A program made the position numbers and the translations under genes. From an uncultured bacterium (GTDB lineage: Bacteria; Planctomycetota; Phycisphaerae; SM23-33; FEN-1343): 64,000 nucleotides of DNA. Where the stretch lies: NCBI GenBank assembly GCA_965372365.1, contig CBDVCA010000001.1:5810-69809 (forward strand), given 5' to 3'. Numbering within the stretch: position 1 is the first letter of the stretch; each line of letters starts with the position of its first letter. The notes under the pieces are model-generated. The model searched no databases. It saw only the letters and a program-made list of their open reading frames with translations, and was not told the DNA's origin. Below, piece after piece: positions 4,512 to 50,257 of the stretch.

Positions 4512-6074
4512 TTAGAAGTCGGCCAGGCCGGACTCACCCGCTGCAACAGTCGATTTGGCCGTCGAAGCCGCAGGCGTCTGAGCGATCATGTGCCAAGGGT
4601 CGTCGCTGCCGGAGGAGGCCGGGACCGCTCCCGCCGCCGAATCGCTTCCGTCGACCAGTTGGGCCAGTAGGCGGACCTGCCCGGTCATCGCGACGGCCTG
4701 GGCGTCCAGTTCTTCAGCAGCCGAGGCCGACTCTTCGGCGTTAGCGGCATTGGCTTGGGTGCTCTGATCGAGTTGGGTTACGATCTCGTTGATCTGCTCG
4801 ATGCCTTGGGCCTGTTCGACCGTCGCATCGGAGATCTCGCCGATCAGGGTGTCCACTTTGCGAACACCGTCGGCGACGTCGGCCAACGACTCTCCCACCG
4901 ACCGGGTGATTTCCACGCCGCGATCGGCGTTGCGAGCGGACTTCTCGATCATCGAAGCGGTGTTCCTGGCCGCCTCGGCGCTTCGCTGAGCGAGGTTGCG
5001 AACTTCCTCGGCGACCACGGCGAACCCCTTGCCGGCCTCACCGGCCCGAGCGGCCTCGACCGCGGCGTTCAACGCCAATAGATTGGTCTGGAAGGCGATC
5101 TCATCGATCGTCTTGATAATCCGGCCGGTTTCGTCGGAGGACTTCTTGATGTCATCAATCGCGGTGGTCATCTTCGTCATCGCCTCGGCGCTCTGTTCGG
5201 CGGTGGAACTGACTTGGGCGGTAACTTCCTGGGCGAGCTTGGCGTTGTCTGCGTTCTGCTTGCATGACGCGGACATCTGCTCGGCGCCGGCCGACGCCTG
5301 CTCGAACGAGGCCGCCTGCTCGGAAGTCTGCTGGGCCAACGACTGGCTCGCTGTCGCCACTTGGCTGCTGGCCTCGCCGACCTGGGCGGAGCCCTCATTC
5401 AGGTTGGCAATGATCTTCCGCAGGGTCTTGGAGACGCCTCGGGCGATAATCGTCGCGATCACAACGCCTGTGACAATGGCGATGATCGATGCGACGGTCA
5501 CGATCAGCCGCGTCGACGACGCTTGGGCGAACACGTCGGCGTTGACCTGGTCGGCTGTCTCCTCTAGATGCGAGTTGGCGCCGTCCAGAAGCTTCTGGAG
5601 CTTGGCGAGCGTCGGCAGCGTCCGGGTCTGGAACGCATTCCTCGCCAGTTCCATGCCGTCAGCGCCTTGGGCGGCGTGCCCTTGAATTTCGATCGCCGAC
5701 TCATGCAGCGTCGCGTGATAACCTTCGACTTCCGACAGGATCGGCGCCAGAGCGGGCGCCAACGCCTCCGAATCCTTGCGATCGGGGCCGTAGAGCCACT
5801 TGCCCAGCGCGCACTTGTGATCGTCGGTCTGGACGTCCACCTGCGTAACCTCGTCGTCGGTGAACAGGGCGCTGACCTTGGCCGTCCAGTTGAGATGATC
5901 CACCTTCCTGCACAGCAATTCGGCATTCAACTTGCCTACGTCAATCGACGTAGTCACCCCACCTCGCATGCCATTGACGCCATAGACGGCGGCGCCGGCC
6001 AACACGACCAGCAGGGCGAGCACCGTAGCGAACCCCAGTCCGATCTTCTTCCCGACAGTTAGCTGCTTGAACAT
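4512..6074 (-). CDS. Methyl-accepting chemotaxis protein with an inter-TM CZB-like (zinc-binding) sensor motif, HAMP and MCP signalling domain
   Basis: Start at internal Met [10 protein letters not shown] with GAGAGG 6 nt upstream. TM1 [23 protein letters not shown]-like H-x2-W (DHLNW), 24 aa, CALGKW, 26 aa, HATLH. TM2 [25 protein letters not shown] core [38 protein letters not shown]. Confidence 0.85.
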
Positions 6075-31478: not shown

Positions 31479-31787
31479 CTACGCCTTGATCTTCACGAAC
31501 ACGCCAGCCGGCACCACCAGGCGGTTGAGCGCCTCGATGGTGCGGACGGTCGGTTCGTAAATATCGATCACTCGCTTGTGAGTCCGCATCTCGAACTGCT
31601 CGCGGCTCTTCTTATCCACATGCGGTCCCCGAAGCACCGTGTATCGTTCGGTGCGGGTCGGCAGCGGGATGGGCCCGCGGACCCGGGCGCCGGTCCGCTC
31701 GGCGTGATCAACGATCTCACGGGCCGAGGTATCCAACGCACGGTGGTCGTAGGCTTCCATTCGAATTCTGATCTTGTCCTGCAACAT
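31479..31787 (-). CDS. rpsJ: 30S ribosomal protein S10
   Basis: …[21 protein letters not shown]…. Confidence 0.93.
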
Positions 31788-31990
31788 ATCGGCGTTTCTC
31801 CGTCATGGACAACCGTGCCGTCTTACGACTGCCGCGGCCAAGAGCCCATGCTTCTTTCCGGCGTTTCAACCACAATGGCTACGTTTGTTTCTAAGCCATT
31901 CTGTAGAGTCCATCTACCTTACTGAAGTAGACGCCGTTGTCAATGCAACCTGTGGCGTAATTCTCCATTTTTTTTCAACATCGTCACCTG

Positions 31991-34117
31991 TCAGACAAAT
32001 CGCAGCAATTTGTCCGCCACGTGGCGAGGAACAACCGCGTAATTGCTGGGTTCCATCGTACTGGTCGCCCGGCCTTGCGTCATACTCCGCAAGGCTGTGG
32101 TGTATCCAAATACCTCAGCCAGCGGAACTTTCGCTTCAATTAAACGCATCGTGTGACGCATGTCCATGCTGACGATCACGGCGCGACGCGAATTCAAGTC
32201 GCCGGTGACCGCGCCGAGAAATTCCTCGGGACAGACCACCTGCAAACCCATAATCGGCTCCATAAATGTCGGGGCGGCCTTCTCGACCGCCGCTTCGAAC
32301 GCCACCGTCCCGGCCTGGAGAAACGCCATCTCCGTACTGTCCACCGGATGGCACTCGCCGCCGGTCAGCGTGACTTTGATGTTCTCCAGCGGATACCCGG
32401 CGAGATGCCCGCTGCGGGCGGCGTCGCGAACGCCCTCTTCGATCGACGCGATGAACGATTTGGGGACATCCTCCGGGGAGCAGTCGACCACAAACATCAC
32501 CGGCGACTCGCCCTCACCGGGAGCGTGGGGCTCGACAGTCAGCGTGACCACGCCGAAATGCCCGCGACCGCCGATCTGGCGGACGAAACGCCCTTCGGCC
32601 TCGGCGGCCGAGCAGATGGTCTCTTTGTACGCCACGCGAGGCCTGCCCACCTTCACGTCGACACCCATGTCGCGGCGAAGCTTGTGATGGAGGATCTCGA
32701 GGTGCAATTCGCCCATCCCGGCGATCAGCGTCTGGCCCGTTTCACTATTGAACCGGCACTGGAACGAGGGGTCCTCCCGACGCAACACTTCCAGAGCCGA
32801 AGCCAGCTTGGCCTTGTCCGCGGAACTCCGCGGCTCAATCGACATGCTGATGACCGCCTCGGGAAAGTCCATCGTATCCAGAACCACCTGATTGCGCGGG
32901 TCGCACAACGTATCGCCGGTCAGGCTATACTTGCAGCCGACAAGGGCGACGATGTCGCCGGCGAGCGCCTCGTCGCGGCGGATTCGCTGCTTGGCGTACA
33001 TCTCCCAGATCCGCGAGACGATTTCCTTCTTCTCCCGCAACGGGTTGTACACACGCGATCCGGCCTTGAGGACGCCGCTGTAGATACGGGCGAAATACAG
33101 ATCCCCGTGCTGGTCGGAGGTGATCTTGAACACCAAGGCGCTCATCGGCTCGTCGATCGAGGCCGATCGAATGACCTCAGTCTCGTCGCTCACTCCGGCC
33201 CGACCCACCACCGGCGGCACGTCCAGCGGACTGGGAAGATACCACTGCACCGCGTCCAGCAACGGACGAACGCCAATGTGCTTCAACGCCGACCCGCACA
33301 ACACCGGGTGCAGCGCATCGGCGCACACGGCACGGCGAATGGCCTGGCGAATATCGGCCTCGGAAATATCGTCGTCGGCGATGAACTTCTCCATCAACCC
33401 GTCGTCCACCTCGGCGATCCGCTCGATCATGTCGTGACGAGCCTGGGTCGCCGCGTCGACCATCTCCTCGGGGATCTCGCTGACGATAAGGTCGGTGGCC
33501 ACCTCCGCCGGCGTATACACATACGCCTTCATGCTGACCAAGTCGACCTGGCCGATGAACGTATCCCCTTCGCCGATTGGCAGTTGTAATACCACGGGAT
33601 GACTGTTCAGCCGTTCGCCGATTTCGGCGACGACCCGATCGAACTCCGCGCCCAGACGATCCATCTTGTTGATGAAGCAGATTCGCGGCACGCCGTAACG
33701 GTCGGCCTGGCGCCAGACGGTTTCGCTCTGGGCCTCGACGCCGCCAACGCCGCAGAAAACAGCGACGGCCCCGTCCAGCACGCGAAGCGATCGCTCGACT
33801 TCGACGGTGAAGTCGACGTGGCCGGGGGTGTCGATCAAGTTGAACGTGTGGTCCTTCCACGGGCACGTCGTGGCCGCCGAGGTGATGGTGATCCCACGCT
33901 GCTGCTCTTCGACAAGATAGTCCATCACGGCGGTGCCTTTGTGGACCTCGCCGATCTTGTACGTCTTGCCCGTGAAGAAGAGCACCCGCTCGGTCACGGT
34001 CGTCTTACCGGCATCGATATGCGCCATGATGCCGATGTTTCGAATTTTGCTCAGCTCTCGGGCCACAGTCTCACCGTCAGAACCATAATCACCCGCCGCC
34101 GCGAGGGCGGCGCCCAT
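31991..34117 (-). CDS. fusA: Elongation factor G
   Basis: …[14 protein letters not shown]…[11 protein letters not shown]… An alternative GTG start at about 34067 ([18 protein letters not shown] upstream) better matches typical EF-G N-termini. Confidence 0.93.
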
Positions 34118-34488
34118 GCCTATGCGCGCATGAATATCGGGTCGTCCAGGTCGTCTTTTTCAGGCGAACCGTTCGGTCGGAATAGACGAACCGACCGCAG
34201 CGTAACGCCGTTACCAGCACAAAACACAGAATGCAATCCGTCGAAATACGCTTCCCGCCTCGGATACGGCGGGTCCGGCTTTGCGGAAAGCCGGTCCGGT
34301 TCACTTATCTCAAGCGGAACGCCCGTCGCCATATTGGCGAGGTCGCCTTCTCTGAGCCCCGGCACACACTCCGCCGACCTCGGTCGGCGTCGGCGCCGGG
34401 GTCGCTCCGGCATATCCGCCGCCGGAGCGATTCATCCCACACCGTCTGGCGATCCGGAGAGGATCGCGTGGGTACATCGCGATAAACA

Positions 34489-34529
34489 CAAACAAACAAA
34501 AAAGCCCGCATCCCAAATCGAATGCGGGC
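34489..34529 (-). terminator. Rho-independent terminator right after the rpsG stop (gcccgcat-loop-atgcgggc plus UUUUUUGUUUGUUUG)
   Basis: 8-bp GC-rich stem (minus-strand complement of 34504..34511 and 34522..34529) followed on the minus strand by a U-rich tract (A-run 34491..34503 on +). It lies inside the str operon between rpsG and fusA, so it likely acts as an attenuator. Confidence 0.65.
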
Positions 34530-34537
34530 GATCTTCG

Positions 34538-35020
34538 TTACCAGGCGAAGTGCGCGAACGCCTTGTTCGCGTCGGCCATGCGGTGCACATTCGTGCGAGT
34601 CTGCATGGCGGTTCCTTCTTTGTTGTACGCGGCCATCAGTTCAGTAGCCAAACGCTGGCAGATCGGCGAACCCTTCCCGGCGCGGATTGCGGTCAACACC
34701 CACCGAGTCGCCAGGGCCTGCTGACGCTTGCGATTCACCTGCATCGGCACCTGATAGTTCTGGCCGCCGACGCGCTTCGAACGCACTTCGATCGCGGGCT
34801 TGACGTTGTTCATCGCCCCCTCGAACACTTCCACGGGGGTGACTTCCTTGTCCTTCATCTTCTCGGCGATGATGTCCATGGCGTCGTAGAACACCCGCAG
34901 GGCGGTAGACTTCTTGCCGTCCAGCATGAGGCAGTTGATGAACTTGCTGACGACCTTGGAGCCGTACCGGGGGTCCGGAGAAAGCTGCTTGACCGAATTG
35001 GTGTAACTTTTGCCCGACAT
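34538..35020 (-). CDS. rpsG: 30S ribosomal protein S7
   Basis: S7 family sequence. Confidence 0.93.
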
Positions 35021-35160
35021 AGTCTTCCTTTCACGCCCGCCGGACGTCCCGGTCGGGTGAGTCTCGATTCATGCCTCGGCCTGTTCAGCGGCCCCGCGTT
35101 CGGGGCTTCCGCGCTTACTCCGACCGGTCGGGCCGGAGCCGAGGCAGGTAGGTGCGTCCG

Positions 35161-35550
35161 CTATTTCGGTCGTTTGGTGCCGTACTTGCTGCGGCCTTGG
35201 CGTCGGGGGCCCCAGTTTTCCTGCTCGGCGAGGCCGCTGCAGTCCAGCGTGCCGCGGACGATGTGATACCGCACGCCCGGAAGGTCTCGCACGCGACCGC
35301 CGCGAACGAGAACGATGCTGTGCTCCTGGAGGTTGTGCCCGCATCCGGGGATGTAGGCGCTCACTTCCTTGCCGTTGCTGAGGCGAACACGAGCCACCTT
35401 TCGCAGAGCGGAGTTGGGCTTCTTGGGCGTCTGGGTCTTCACCAGCAGGCAAACGCCGCGACGCTGGGGGCAATGCTCCAACGCCACGTTCTTCTTCTTG
35501 GAGGCCTGCTTCTTCCGACCGTGCCGGACCAGTTGATTGATTGTGGGCAT
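35161..35550 (-). CDS. rpsL: 30S ribosomal protein S12
   Basis: [14 protein letters not shown]…. Confidence 0.93.
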
Positions 35551-35634
35551 ATGGACTTTCCGTTCTATACGTCGTTGTCTTCGGGCGCTGGCCCGCTATC
35601 GTTTCACTCCCCCGCCATGCGAGGTTGATTCTTC

Positions 35635-39954
<4,320 letters not shown>

Positions 39955-47508: not shown

Positions 47509-47643
47509 AGTTACAACCGCCTATCGCCATCGGGCCACCCGCCGCCGGCGTGCATCGCCAACGCCAGGCCCCTGGGGTCAATCCAGTCGACTGCAGCTCA
47601 CCACGTTACGGCCACGTCCTCACAACTTTGCGGCGTCCATCAC

Positions 47644-47716
47644 CACGGCAGGGAGGACTTGAACCCCCAACCTGCGGTTTTGGAAACCGCTGCTCTGCCA
47701 ATTGAGCTACTGCCGT
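47644..47716 (-). tRNA. tRNA-Trp (anticodon CCA)
   Basis: Cloverleaf folded by hand: acceptor ACGGCAG/CTGCCGT, D GCTC/GAGC, anticodon stem GCGGT/ACCGC with loop TTCCAAA, T arm GGGGG-TTCAAGT-CCTCC. No CCA is encoded. Confidence 0.85.
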
Positions 47717-47833
47717 ATCCGACCCGCCGTGCGGCGCGGCCCCGCCGTGCGGAGGCGCGCCACTGGGCGGCAGGTCGATATCCTGCTCCGGACGGCTCAT
47801 CCGGGGGGGAGGAGCCGCCCGCTATCGGGTTGT

Positions 47834-48001
47834 CTACTTCTTCTTGGTCTTGTGCACCGTGTGCTTACGGGTGCGCGGGCAGAACTTCTTGATTTCCAGC
47901 TTGCCGCCGCCGCCCTGAGTGCGGACCTGAACACGGTAGTTCAGATCCCCACAGTCGGTGCACTGTAGCCACACGTATTCCCGTGGCGAACCTTTGGCCA
48001 T
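47834..48001 (-). CDS. rpmG: 50S ribosomal protein L33 (55 aa; below the ORF-track cutoff)
   Basis: My translation: MAKGSPREYVWLQCTDCGDLNYRVQVRTQGGGGKLEIKKFCPRTRKHTVHKTKKK. Confidence 0.85.
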   Translation of the reverse strand: MAKGSPREYVWLQCTDCGDLNYRVQVRTQGGGGKLEIKKFCPRTRKHTVHKTKKK

Positions 48002-48005
48002 GATG

Positions 48006-49214
48006 TTACTCCAGGATCTTGGTCACGACGCCGGCGCCGACGGTGCGGCCGCCTTCGCGAATGGCGAAACGAAGACCGTCTTCCATGGCGATCTCGGTAT
48101 TGAGCAGTTCAACCATGATGGTGATATTGTCGCCGGGCATGCACATTTCGGCGCCGCCGAGCAGGTTGATGGTTCCGGTCACGTCGGTCGTGCGGAAGTA
48201 GAACTGCGGACGATAGCCGCTGAAGAACGGGCTGTGACGACCGCCCTCTTCCTTGGTCAGCACGTAGACCTCGGCCTCGAACTTCGTGTGGGGGGTGATC
48301 GAACCGGGGGCCGCCAACACCTGCCCGCGTTCCAGATCGGACTTCTCGACGCCGCGGAGCAGGCAACCGACGTTGTCGCCGGCCTGGCCCTGGTCGAGCA
48401 GCTTGTTGAACATCTCGACGCCGGTCACCGTCGTCTTGCGAGTTTCGCCCAGACCGACGATCTCGACCGTCTCGCCCACCTTGACGACACCGCGTTCGAT
48501 ACGGCCGGTGCCCACGGTGCCGCGACCCTTGATGCTGAAGACGTCTTCGATCGGCATCAGGAAGGGCTTGTCGATCTCACGCTCGGGCTCGGGAACGTAC
48601 GAATCCAACGCTTCCATCAACTCGTTGATGCAGGCGATGGCTTCGGGATCCTCGGGGTTGTTCATCGCGATCGACGCGGCGCCCTTGATGACGGGGCAGT
48701 TGTCGCCGTCGAAATCGTACTTGCTGAGCAGTTCGCGAACTTCCAGCTCGACCAGCTCTAGCAGTTCCTCGTCGTCGACCAGGTCGACCTTGTTGAGGAA
48801 GACGACCAGGGCCGGCACGTTCACCTGGCGGCTGAGCAGCACGTGCTCGCGCGTCTGGGGCATCGGGCCGTCGGCGGCCGACACCACCAGGATCGCCCCG
48901 TCCATCTGGGCGGCGCCGGTGATCATGTTCTTGACGTAATCGGCGTGACCGGGGCAATCTACATGAGCGTAGTGCCGCTTCTCCGACTCGTATTCCTGGT
49001 GACTGGTCGCAATCGTAAGGATCTTGGTCGCATCGCGACGACCCTGGCTTTCGGAGGCCTTGGCGACTTGATCGTACGACACGCCTTTGGCCAAACCCTT
49101 GGCGGCCTGCACCATTGTAATGGCAGCGGTCAGTGTGGTCTTGCCGTGATCCACGTGACCGATCGTGCCGACGTTAACGTGAGGCTTCGTTCGTTCAAAG
49201 ACCTCCTTGGCCAT
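48006..49214 (-). CDS. tuf: Elongation factor Tu (the only tuf in the window; tufB-type context)
   Basis: …[14 protein letters not shown]…DCPGHADY…. Confidence 0.95.
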
Positions 49215-49283
49215 TTTGTTGCTCCTGTAGAAACGCCGCTATTCGTGGGTCAAGACGACAGTTATCCTAACCGTTTCATTTCA

Positions 49284-49328
49284 GTCCAAACGACCTTCGT
49301 CCAAACGACCTTCGTCCAAACGACCTTA
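49284..49328. repeat. Three tandem copies of a 15-bp unit gtccaaacgaccttc in the tRNA-Thr(GGU)/tuf spacer
   Basis: Seen directly in the sequence. Confidence 0.8.
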
Positions 49329-49409
49329 CCGACTCTTCCGCCGGCAGCGCCGACGGCCGGGTGCAAACCCGTGCGTCACAAACACTATCGAGCGGGTTCT
49401 CCGCCCACG

Positions 49410-49481
<72 letters not shown>

Positions 49482-49640
49482 ACACGCCGCGCATCCCCGA
49501 GGGTACACCGCCCCTAGCGACCCTAGGGTGAACGGGGCATTATGCCTCAACGAAAGCGACTGTCAAATGAAAAATTATGCGCCCGACGCACAAAATGCCT
49601 CCAGGCAAGGGACCACGGGCCAAACACGCAGGGCCGCAAT

Positions 49641-49756
49641 CCGCCGACAAACGACTGAACGCCGCCGAAAAACAGCTGAACGCTACCGACAAACGACTGC
49701 ACGCTACCGACAAACGACTGCACGCTACCGGCAAACGACTGCACGCTACCGAAAGG
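49641..49756. repeat. About 5.5 tandem copies of a 21-bp unit (c[tc][ag]ccg[ag]caaacgactg[ac]acg) in the tRNA-Gly/tRNA-Thr(GGU) spacer
   Basis: Seen in sequence. Shares the core caaacgac with the 15-bp repeat at 49284..49328. Confidence 0.8.
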
Positions 49757-49795
49757 GGCCGCAAGTTGCCAAAGGGGCCGCGGATCGATCCGAAC

Positions 49796-49868
49796 AGCGG
49801 GCGACCGGGGTCGAACCGGCAACAACTAGCTTGGAAGGCTAGTACTCTACCAATTGAGCTACGCCCGC
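49796..49868 (-). tRNA. tRNA-Gly (anticodon UCC)
   Basis: GCGGGCG-TA-GCTC…CTAGC-CTTCCAA-GCTAG…GCCGG-TTCGACC-CCGGT-CGCCCGC-T. Confidence 0.85.
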
Positions 49869-49980
49869 AAGCAACGCCAAACCCGCCTCTCAGCCGCGGC
49901 CAGCCTCTGCCACAGACCCGACATACGGACCGGTCGGCCATCTCGTCGCACGGCAAGCCGCGGCAACGCCGCGACCTTAC

Positions 49981-50063
49981 TGGGAGCGGGTGGATTCGAA
50001 CCACCGAAGGCGTACGCCGTCAGATTTACAGTCTGATCCCTTTGGCCACTCGGGCACACTCCC
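49981..50063 (-). tRNA. tRNA-Tyr (anticodon GUA; long variable arm)
   Basis: GGGAGTG-TG-CCCG…TCAGA-CTGTAAA-TCTGA-CGGCGTACGCCTTC-GGTGG-TTCGAAT-CCACC-CGCTCCC-A. Confidence 0.85.
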
Positions 50064-50111
50064 ACGAACGTCTCGCCTGCAAGCGAGCGTAGCAATAAAG
50101 CATGATCCATG

Positions 50112-50143
50112 CGGCGTGTCAACCGGCTACACGTCGTTTTTTT
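50112..50143 (+). terminator. Candidate intrinsic terminator on the + strand (cggcgtgt-caaccggct-acacgtcg plus T7), antisense to the tRNA operon
   Basis: 8-bp stem (one G-U) followed by TTTTTTT. No + strand gene was identified upstream. Confidence 0.35.
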
Positions 50144-50185
50144 GCAGAAACCGCGTTCAATGCCGATATTCCACACGCCGCGTCA

Positions 50186-50257
50186 AGCCAGCGATGGGAT
50201 TCGAACCCGTAACCTCCGCTTTACAAAAGCGGTGCTCTACCGTTGAGCTACGCTGGC
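50186..50257 (-). tRNA. tRNA-Thr (anticodon UGU)
   Basis: GCCAGCG-TA-GCTC…CCGCT-TTTGTAA-AGCGG…ACGGG-TTCGAAT-CCCAT-CGCTGGC-T (one A-C mismatch in the T stem). Confidence 0.8.

Follow-up and report, generated by a model that had tools for sequence, protein, structure and literature searches.

Structured regulatory RNAs in the operons of ribosomal proteins and translation factors are well charted in Gammaproteobacteria and Firmicutes and, to our knowledge, almost unknown in Planctomycetota. We analysed a 64,000-nt stretch of DNA (the window) from an uncultured bacterium of the Phycisphaerae (GenBank assembly GCA_965372365.1, contig CBDVCA010000001.1, positions 5,810 to 69,809), whose minus strand reads rpoC, rpsL, rpsG, a long spacer, fusA, rpsJ and rplC. 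Our subject is the spacer between rpsG (ribosomal protein S7) and fusA (elongation factor G, EF-G) of this str operon, which contains a conserved RNA motif of ~220 nt. In E. coli, S7 is the repressor of the str operon. Its binding retroregulates the upstream cistron (S12) and affects fusA, and its site, a small irregular hairpin found in Gammaproteobacteria only, is placed between rpsL and rpsG (PMC3616713). Other studies have suggested structured elements in the rpsG-fusA gap or 3′ of ribosomal-protein genes (PMC2965389, PMC2704228, PMC2864571).

The Phycisphaerae motif shares some features with each of the closest described systems and differs in others. Like the E. coli S7 operator, it would be a structured RNA within the rpsL-rpsG-fusA operon mRNA that tunes str-operon cistrons. 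That operator occupies the rpsL-rpsG position and overlaps the rpsG initiation region, whereas the element described here lies 3′ of rpsG, is ~220 nt long, contains a four-way junction, occurs in Phycisphaerae and has no apparent similarity to it. The streptococcal str-operon element is likewise lineage-specific and located in the same rpsG-fusA spacer, and the spacer of the window too holds a terminator. Elements of the streptococcal type, however, consist of a terminator and an antiterminator that form as alternatives; in our case the terminator precedes the conserved part and is absent in most members, and the conserved part is a four-way junction. The Pelagibacter "rpsL motif" is also a clade-limited multi-stem junction in the str region that was found by comparative genomics (Meyer et al, 2009, PMC2704228). 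Its junction has three stems and is found ahead of rpsL in the AT-rich genomes of SAR11, occasionally also before rpsG or fusA (PMC2704228), whereas the present motif combines a four-way junction with three hairpins, is GC-rich and is always 3′ of rpsG. The L17 downstream element, proposed as a 3′-side feedback element, resembles it as a structured RNA immediately 3′ of a ribosomal-protein gene without obvious rRNA mimicry (Weinberg et al, 2010, PMC2864571), but the gene is rplQ, the phylum and the fold are different, and the L17 element is in Rfam whereas our motif matches no Rfam family. SAM-I-type aptamers have in common with it the four-way junction, conserved junction nucleotides, variable peripheral stems and a 5′ leader position; the motif differs from them in having no Rfam match, a single gene context and no detected terminator or ribosome-binding-site platform.

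We retrieved 80 genome loci by S7 and compared their rpsG-fusA spacers. One group, mainly labelled Sedimentisphaerales or "Pirellulales", had spacers of 60–250 nt and an EF-G that was ~53% identical; a second (~17 loci) had spacers of 360–614 nt and an EF-G 62–76% identical to that of the window. When the long spacers were compared side by side, common blocks were seen to be interrupted by variable hairpins, in the order ACGGUGU..GAAUCGC[hairpin]GCGACCCCGG[hairpin]CCGGGGCUCAGAGAAGGC[hairpin]GCUUGAGAUAAGACAACCGGGCCGGCUUGCC.CAAAGCCGG[hairpin]. Seven spacers were aligned with MAFFT and folded with RNAalifold, which returned helices P1–P6 with 12 compensatory pairs (P1, CGGU/ACCG; P2, UCGCYC../..GRGCGA; P3, CCCCGG../..CCGGGG; P4, CUCAG-AGAA-GG../..CC-GCU-UGAG). 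A covariance model built from this alignment gave one match per locus in 16 genome loci, always in the rpsG-fusA spacer, and weak partial matches in two further loci (L007 and L010). The sole match in the window scored 189.7 bits (E = 1.6e-44) and is listed with its parts in Table 1. A metagenome collection was then scanned with a context-free DNA pattern (CCGGGGCTCAG-N25–55-GAGATA-N4–5-AACCKGRC), and this yielded 51 loci in which, wherever the contigs reach, the motif lies 3′ of rpsG and 5′ of fusA on the same strand. The total came to 67 loci with 63 distinct sequences, from Phycisphaerae genomes and metagenomes, in lineages whose S7 proteins are only 60–80% identical. In the 67 model matches the modelled region begins 29–257 nt (mostly 30–100 nt) after the rpsG stop, and in many members the conserved element itself begins 10–30 nt past it. 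An earlier note on this DNA, made from the letters of the window alone, had staked its reading on conservation of the spacer in close relatives, and conservation is what we found.

Base pairing was evaluated on two alignments. In the model-based alignment of the 63 distinct sequences, 94.5% of the cells were paired and 28 of 48 pairs showed double changes. There were 217 double-change cells, compared with at most 56 when the 3′ partners were slid by 1–3 columns, and none of 500 shuffles reached the observed value. Since this alignment is fitted to the model, the core helices alone were counted again in 26 diverse members that had been aligned with MAFFT independently of the model. Here 95.8% of the cells were paired, 8 of 25 core pairs were compensatory, and 32 double-change cells were counted against at most 9 in the slid controls. 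The pairs at the base of P3 and of P4 are almost invariant in sequence, and covariation therefore neither proves nor contradicts them. The lengths of the inserts in P2, P3 and P4 were spread evenly modulo 3; the conserved blocks therefore keep no common reading frame, the region is non-coding, and coding potential or a leader peptide was rejected on this evidence. We regard as firmly established that this is a ~220-nt conserved non-coding structured RNA that is absent from Rfam, occurs only in the rpsG-fusA spacer of a single Phycisphaerae clade and lies in a spacer with no recognisable promoter.

Table 1. Features of the rpsG-fusA region of the window, with positions counted from its first letter.
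Feature	Positions	Strand	Sequence or parts	Remarks
rpoC	35635–39954	minus		
rpsL	35161–35550	minus		
rpsG (ribosomal protein S7, 160 aa)	34538–35020	minus	stop TAA 34540–34538	from the list of open reading frames
Intrinsic terminator	34484..34529	minus	hairpin 34529..34504; U-tract 34503..34484 (UUUUUUGUUUGUUUGUGUUU)	two terminator scans
Conserved rpsG-fusA intergenic RNA motif	34249..34468	minus	P0, four-way junction P1–P4, P5, P6	covariance model, covariation
P0 hairpin	34449..34467	minus	GCGAUCC-UCUCC-GGAUCGC	hairpin here in nearly all members, sequences differ
P1 5′ strand and J1/2	34444–34441 and 34440–34431	minus	CGGU; GUGGGAUGAA	J1/2 ends in near-invariant GAAU
P2	34402..34430	minus	UCGCUCCGG ... 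CCGGAGCGA	compensatory changes
P3	34357..34401	minus	CCCCGGCG ... UGCCGGGG	with distal hairpin
P4	34309..34356	minus	CUCAG-AGAA-GG ... CC-GCU-UGAG	conserved internal loop
J4/1 and P1 3′ strand	34297..34308	minus	AUAAGUGA 34308–34301; ACCG 34300–34297	ACCG pairs with CGGU of the P1 5′ strand
P5 and P6	34254..34294	minus	P5 CCGGCUUU-CCGC-AAAGCCGG 34294–34275; P6 CCCGCC-GUAUCCGA-GGCGGG 34273–34254	
Domain 2	34163..34203	minus	ACGCUGCGG-[hairpin]-CCGAACGGUUCGCC	second module, specific to the sub-clade of the window
Variable GC-rich hairpin region before the fusA start	34067..34162	minus		unconserved beyond closest relatives
fusA (EF-G)	31991..34066	minus	GTG start 34066–34064	most likely start, corrected by the N-termini of relatives
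Predicted promoter in the fusA-rpsJ spacer	31916..31943	minus	TTGACA-N17-TAAGGT	only exact TTGACA-N16–18-TANNNT match in the window
rpsJ	31479–31787	minus		rplC next in gene order

The motif consists of a framework of near-invariant junction nucleotides (GAAU...CGACCCCGGU...GCCGGGGCUCAG...UGAGAUAAGACAACC; ~60 near-invariant nt in all) from which more variable hairpins project. The first pair of P1 covaries in both alignments (CG 40, AU 13 and GU 7 in the model alignment; CG 18, AU 4 and GU 3 in the independent one), and P2 has compensatory changes in five of seven modelled pairs (UA 33, CG 22 and UG 8 at one of them) and in four of seven in the independent alignment. The base of the P3 stem, CCCCGG(U)/(G)CCGGGG, is nearly invariant, and its distal part is always a hairpin that varies in sequence and length. 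P4 is built in the same way, with a nearly invariant base and internal loop and a variable distal hairpin. In J4/1 the family consensus is GAGAUAAGACAACC(G/U)G, where the window has GUGA in place of the GACA of the family. Compensatory changes in the model alignment affect three pairs in P5 and seven in P6, and in most members P5 carries an additional inserted hairpin.

The spacer as a whole is predicted to fold with a minimum free energy (MFE) of −230.2 kcal/mol, compared with −201.5 ± 7.0 kcal/mol for dinucleotide shuffles (z = −4.09), and none of 100 shuffles was as stable. All four GC stems that had been picked out in the earlier note are present in the sequence: ccggcttt/aaagccgg is P5, cgctccgg/ccggagcg lies within P2, cccgcc/ggcggg is P6, and cggtcgg/ccgaccg falls within domain 2. 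Three of the four are thus parts of the covariation-backed motif, and the fourth is part of a module that the closest relatives share. The G+C content of the window is 60–65%, that of the spacer is unremarkable for it, and DNA of this composition often contains short GC stems, so that the hairpins might be taken for chance products of GC-rich non-coding DNA. The fold z-score and the 67 homologous copies with compensatory changes argue otherwise; this explanation is refuted by the comparative data and we consider its chances negligible.

The Rfam scan that had been suggested for the spacer found no family at the motif. At the gathering threshold, Rfam 15 (4227 models) detected only five tRNAs in the whole window. 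At E ≤ 10 over positions 33900–34700 there was only noise (Thr_leader, for example, scored 17.4 bits where its threshold is 55) and no str-operon family, and a scan of eight other members at E ≤ 1 gave nothing at the motif. Searches of the full-text literature did not find a description of it. The motif is therefore probably uncatalogued so far and a new family within the structured regulatory RNAs of ribosomal-protein and translation-factor operons. The family comprises 63 distinct sequences, has a four-way junction and strong covariation, keeps a constant place in the str operon and could be submitted to Rfam. We also looked for mimicry of rRNA (the S7 site at h29/h43, the sarcin-ricin loop and the GTPase centre) and rejected it, as the E. 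coli rrs and rrl genes share with the motif only 7–10-mers at chance level (E ≥ 0.2). The 8-mers AAGCGGUG and GAAUCGCU, which are found in helix 29 of 16S rRNA, are no more frequent than expected by chance, and the covariation is unlike pairing of the h29 type. On the E. coli rrn operon, the best score of the covariance model was 4.6 bits. Obvious similarity to rRNA is often absent from genuine leaders (PMC2864571).

Immediately behind the rpsG stop the earlier note had placed a strong terminator with an 8-bp stem. It is indeed there, and slightly stronger than claimed: the hairpin begins 8 nt past the stop and has 10 pairs, seven of them G-C, and a 6-nt loop. The terminator scan gave GCCCGCATTCGATTTGGGATGCGGGC followed by TTTTTTGTTT over the hairpin positions of Table 1 and reported the hairpin as GCCCGCAUUCGAUUUGGGAUGCGGGC followed by UUUUUUGUUU. 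Among 60 distinct rpsG-to-motif segments, terminator-like hairpins were found in seven and were clear in four. The convincing cases were limited to the window, L001, L002 and L025, where they start 4–8 nt after the rpsG stop. Behind the motif, 2 of 56 motif-to-fusA segments contained a terminator-like hairpin, both weak. Because it is clear in few members only, the terminator lies outside the conserved device and is a recent gain of a few lineages.

This arrangement bears on the proposal that the terminator is the regulated switch of a classical transcription attenuator, with the downstream hairpins as its leader. A canonical terminator is present and no promoter was seen behind it, so that transcription of fusA in the lineage of the window must traverse it. 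The terminator is transcribed before the motif, however, and the motif cannot control it: an RNA made after the termination decision cannot sense ahead of it. Placed 8 nt after the stop codon, the terminator leaves no room for an antiterminator, nothing non-coding that could serve as a sensing leader precedes it, and it is absent from ~90% of the members and not conserved with the motif. Given a terminator that is upstream and rare, and only two weak candidates downstream, the conserved RNA is not a terminator/antiterminator device, and we judge the attenuator envisaged in the earlier note to be very unlikely.

A sigma-70 scan of the spacer found no promoter. In a comparison across related loci, all of the 36 fusA-rpsJ spacers contained the pattern TTGACA (≤ 1 mismatch)-N16–18-TAnnnT, whereas not one of the 56 rpsG-fusA spacers did. 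From this difference, fusA most likely has no promoter of its own and is co-transcribed with rpsG through the motif. In members where the element begins 10–30 nt after the rpsG stop, there is moreover no room for a terminator together with a promoter. Much the same evidence speaks to the possibility that the motif is a small RNA gene of its own that acts in trans, for which the window offers a terminator just upstream that could separate the transcripts. Against such a gene, there is no promoter and no terminator after the motif, the RNA begins close behind the rpsG stop in many members, and its position and orientation are strictly syntenic. The embedded small RNA that had been suggested is, on these grounds, highly improbable.

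The fusA-rpsJ spacer itself (31788–31990, minus strand) has an A-tract, then TTGACA-N17-TAnnnT and then GACUCUGC in 36 of 36 related loci, which looks like a promoter of the S10 operon with an upstream (UP) element. We conclude from these sequences that the clade appears to use recognisable sigma-70-type promoters and that the S10 operon would have its own; an A-tract followed by TTGACA-N17-TAnnnT may serve as a template for strong promoters in this clade. A role of the motif as leader of the S10 operon was rejected in view of the conserved promoter of rpsJ. The rpoC-rpsL spacer (35551–35634, minus strand, 84 nt) has no promoter of the TTGACA type, and rpsL-rpsG(-fusA) may therefore be transcribed together with rpoBC.

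The reading we favour, with a probability of roughly 0.55, is that the motif acts in cis on the str operon, as a leader or an intercistronic operator, and adjusts EF-G against S12 and S7 by binding a trans-acting factor. In the rpsL-rpsG-fusA transcript it would lie behind the S7 cistron and ahead of that of EF-G, and it would set the synthesis of EF-G separately from that of S12 and S7, with the factor binding the conserved junction. A single fixed genomic context is usual for ribosomal-protein leaders and not for metabolite riboswitches. Because of this context, and because no expression platform is recognisable, a protein of the translation apparatus would be the leading candidate for the factor in preference to a metabolite, and S7, encoded directly upstream, would be the first among such candidates by its proximity and by analogy with E. 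coli. As in known leader RNAs, a structure supported by covariation is found in a translation operon and in one fixed context; the resemblance to the rRNA site of the regulator that also marks such leaders was not found. In the lineage of the window, a terminator has been added between rpsG and the motif, so that transcription of fusA must rely on read-through. A ribosome terminating on rpsG may suppress this terminator, since the hairpin begins 8 nt after the stop and its 5′ arm falls within the expected footprint of the terminating ribosome. We infer the cis-regulatory function, the identity of the ligand and the ribosome-dependent read-through. The leader uncoupling EF-G from S12/S7 that the earlier note had envisaged is thus broadly upheld, in that a conserved RNA occupies this place, while the two mechanisms it had offered, attenuator and embedded small RNA, are not.

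Several observations weigh against an operator of this kind. Promoters unlike the TTGACA type may exist in the rpsG-fusA spacer. The lack of similarity to E. coli 16S or 23S rRNA, by sequence or by covariance model, leaves a mimic of the site of S7 or of another ribosomal protein unsupported, and it is atypical for a regulator to bind downstream of its own gene. A stretch of 72–352 nt separates the end of the motif from the fusA start, and its sequence is conserved within sub-clades only. The fusA initiation region is predicted to be only modestly less accessible than that of rpsG (mean unpaired probability 0.45 compared with 0.55), and including the motif makes no difference (0.47 with local context only). 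Complementarity between the P1 3′ strand and the downstream sequence was no greater across the family than in shuffled controls (5.45 observed and 5.67 shuffled), with no locus at p ≤ 0.05.

The folding results were also examined for a mechanism acting on fusA. The initiation region of fusA is predicted to be moderately structured through local pairing only, and no sequestration of it by the motif is predicted. Upstream of P0, ~25 of 56 members have a 5′ "up-box" (CAACAUUG, or ACAACCUGG in members of the AGGU type) that is complementary to the P1 5′ strand and J1/2 and nearly duplicates the P1 3′ strand (in L095, L103, L111, L115, L105 and L130, for example). This suggests that the up-box could form an alternative helix or a pseudoknot, and a few compensatory up-box variants exist (L130, L107 and L123). 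As a general switch, pairing of the up-box with the P1 5′ strand was rejected, as it was not significant family-wide (5.39 observed and 4.91 shuffled) and is unsupported in the window. A downstream "anti-P1" partner was rejected as well: in the MFE fold of the window, GUGAACCGG forms a 9-bp helix with domain 2, but at p = 0.10 only, and the family as a whole shows no enrichment. We also noted that the window deviates from its relatives both in J4/1 (GUGA for GACA, 34300–34308) and in domain 2 (CGGUUCGC for CGGUGCGC, 34163–34171), and that the two deviations jointly create an 8–9-bp helix between the P1 3′ strand and domain 2 that the MFE fold prefers over P1 (p = 0.10).

These results enter into the question of whether the four-way junction could be the aptamer of a riboswitch that senses a metabolite, an ion or an alarmone, such as a guanine nucleotide or (p)ppGpp, and controls EF-G. 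A complex fold with near-invariant junction nucleotides and variable peripheral hairpins is the typical pattern of an aptamer, and in a sub-family the P1 5′ strand could pair alternatively with the up-box. As there is no Rfam match, the riboswitch would be of a new class, sensing a small molecule tied to translational status and directly controlling EF-G synthesis. Yet fusA is the only gene context in 67 loci, no expression platform is conserved (terminators follow the motif in 2 of 56 segments, and pairing of the P1 3′ strand with downstream sequence is not enriched), folding predicts no effect of the motif on the fusA initiation region, and the up-box helix is neither significant family-wide nor supported in the window. 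A riboswitch is thus unlikely in our estimate, and the same holds for a variant that in Phycisphaerae would act through Rho-dependent termination or through long-range effects missed by thermodynamic folding.

Alternatively, the motif could be a structural mRNA element that works without a ligand, either as a processing or stability determinant of the rpsLG:fusA ratio or as a folded spacer that shields a long untranslated stretch from Rho and RNases. Its intercistronic, promoterless and co-transcribed position would suit this, as would its location nearer to the rpsG stop than to the fusA start, the lack of a detected expression platform, and a remaining spacer that is dense in hairpins and unconserved. 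Simple hairpins would suffice for such a task, however, and would not need a four-way junction with ~60 near-invariant nt kept across 60–80% S7 identity. Because the junction is conserved to this degree in sequence, specific recognition is more likely, and we consider a purely structural element quite unlikely. The new family gives a concrete handle on the balance between the synthesis of EF-G and that of S12 and S7 in a phylum of unusual cell biology, and its complexity would suit a riboswitch as well as a protein-binding operator.

Between the motif and fusA, conservation is confined to close relatives. Domain 2 (ACGCUGCGG-[hairpin]-CCGAACGGU(G/U)CG) has invariant flanks and a variable hairpin in the window, L001, L002, L004 and L009, and is not conserved family-wide. 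In L004 (~4870–5030), domain 2 (GCACGCUGCGG..CCGAACGGUGCGGUCC) occurs twice in tandem, with a different inserted hairpin in each copy. In L009 (~4900–5040), and at this locus only, there are four tandem (A)GUAAGUGUU(A/G)C units, each followed by a different perfect hairpin, within the 352-nt stretch between motif and fusA.

The size of the spacer depends on where fusA begins. The longest fusA open reading frame and the gene call in the deposited metagenome-assembled genome (MAG) (L133, gene from 3904) both begin at ATG 34117. The EF-G N-termini of all relatives (VARLLSTIRNIG, MARDLRKIRNIG and similar; VARLLS.., MARDL..), however, match up with GTG 34066, which is in the same frame; in L001 a stop codon lies in frame just upstream, and the closest relatives likewise use GTG. 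Judging from these alignments, fusA most likely starts at GTG 34066 and not at ATG 34117, which corrects the deposited gene call and makes the protein 17 residues shorter. The spacer therefore extends over 34067–34537 and measures 471 nt rather than the 420 nt given in the earlier note, whose observation of a long gap stands. Its statement that genes elsewhere in the cluster are separated by 0–150 nt is roughly true (rpsL-rpsG 140 nt, rpoC-rpsL 84 nt), with the exception of the 203 nt between fusA and rpsJ, and the near contiguity of rpsG and fusA that it stated for E. coli corresponds to a gap of 27 nt in MG1655.

The S7 protein of the window is 65–81% identical to that of relatives, its best matches (at most 81%) being to uncultured Phycisphaerae and other Planctomycetota, and an identical S7 protein is found in MAG GCA_030634665.1, where it carries the Pfam assignment Ribosomal_S7. 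In each of 37 motif-bearing loci, rpsJ lies 3′ of fusA at a distance of 118–215 nt. In eight loci of Phycisphaerae or Planctomycetota (L013, L016, L020, L034, L037, L045, L062, labelled Phycisphaera mikurensis, and L077), the retrieved flank shows no fusA behind rpsG, and the motif is missing; the layout of the str operon therefore varies within the class. The rpsL-rpsG spacer (35021–35160, minus strand) measures 125–168 nt in the sub-clade of the window and 18–77 nt in most other members. It contains a conserved hairpin, GUAAGCGCGGA[hairpin]CCGCUGAA, common to the window, L001, L002 and L004, which may be a separate operator at the position of the E. coli S7 site. Further along the window, a tRNA cluster (Thr-Tyr-Gly-Thr, then Trp; 47643–50257, minus strand) has an arrangement typical of the tuf/secE-nusG region.

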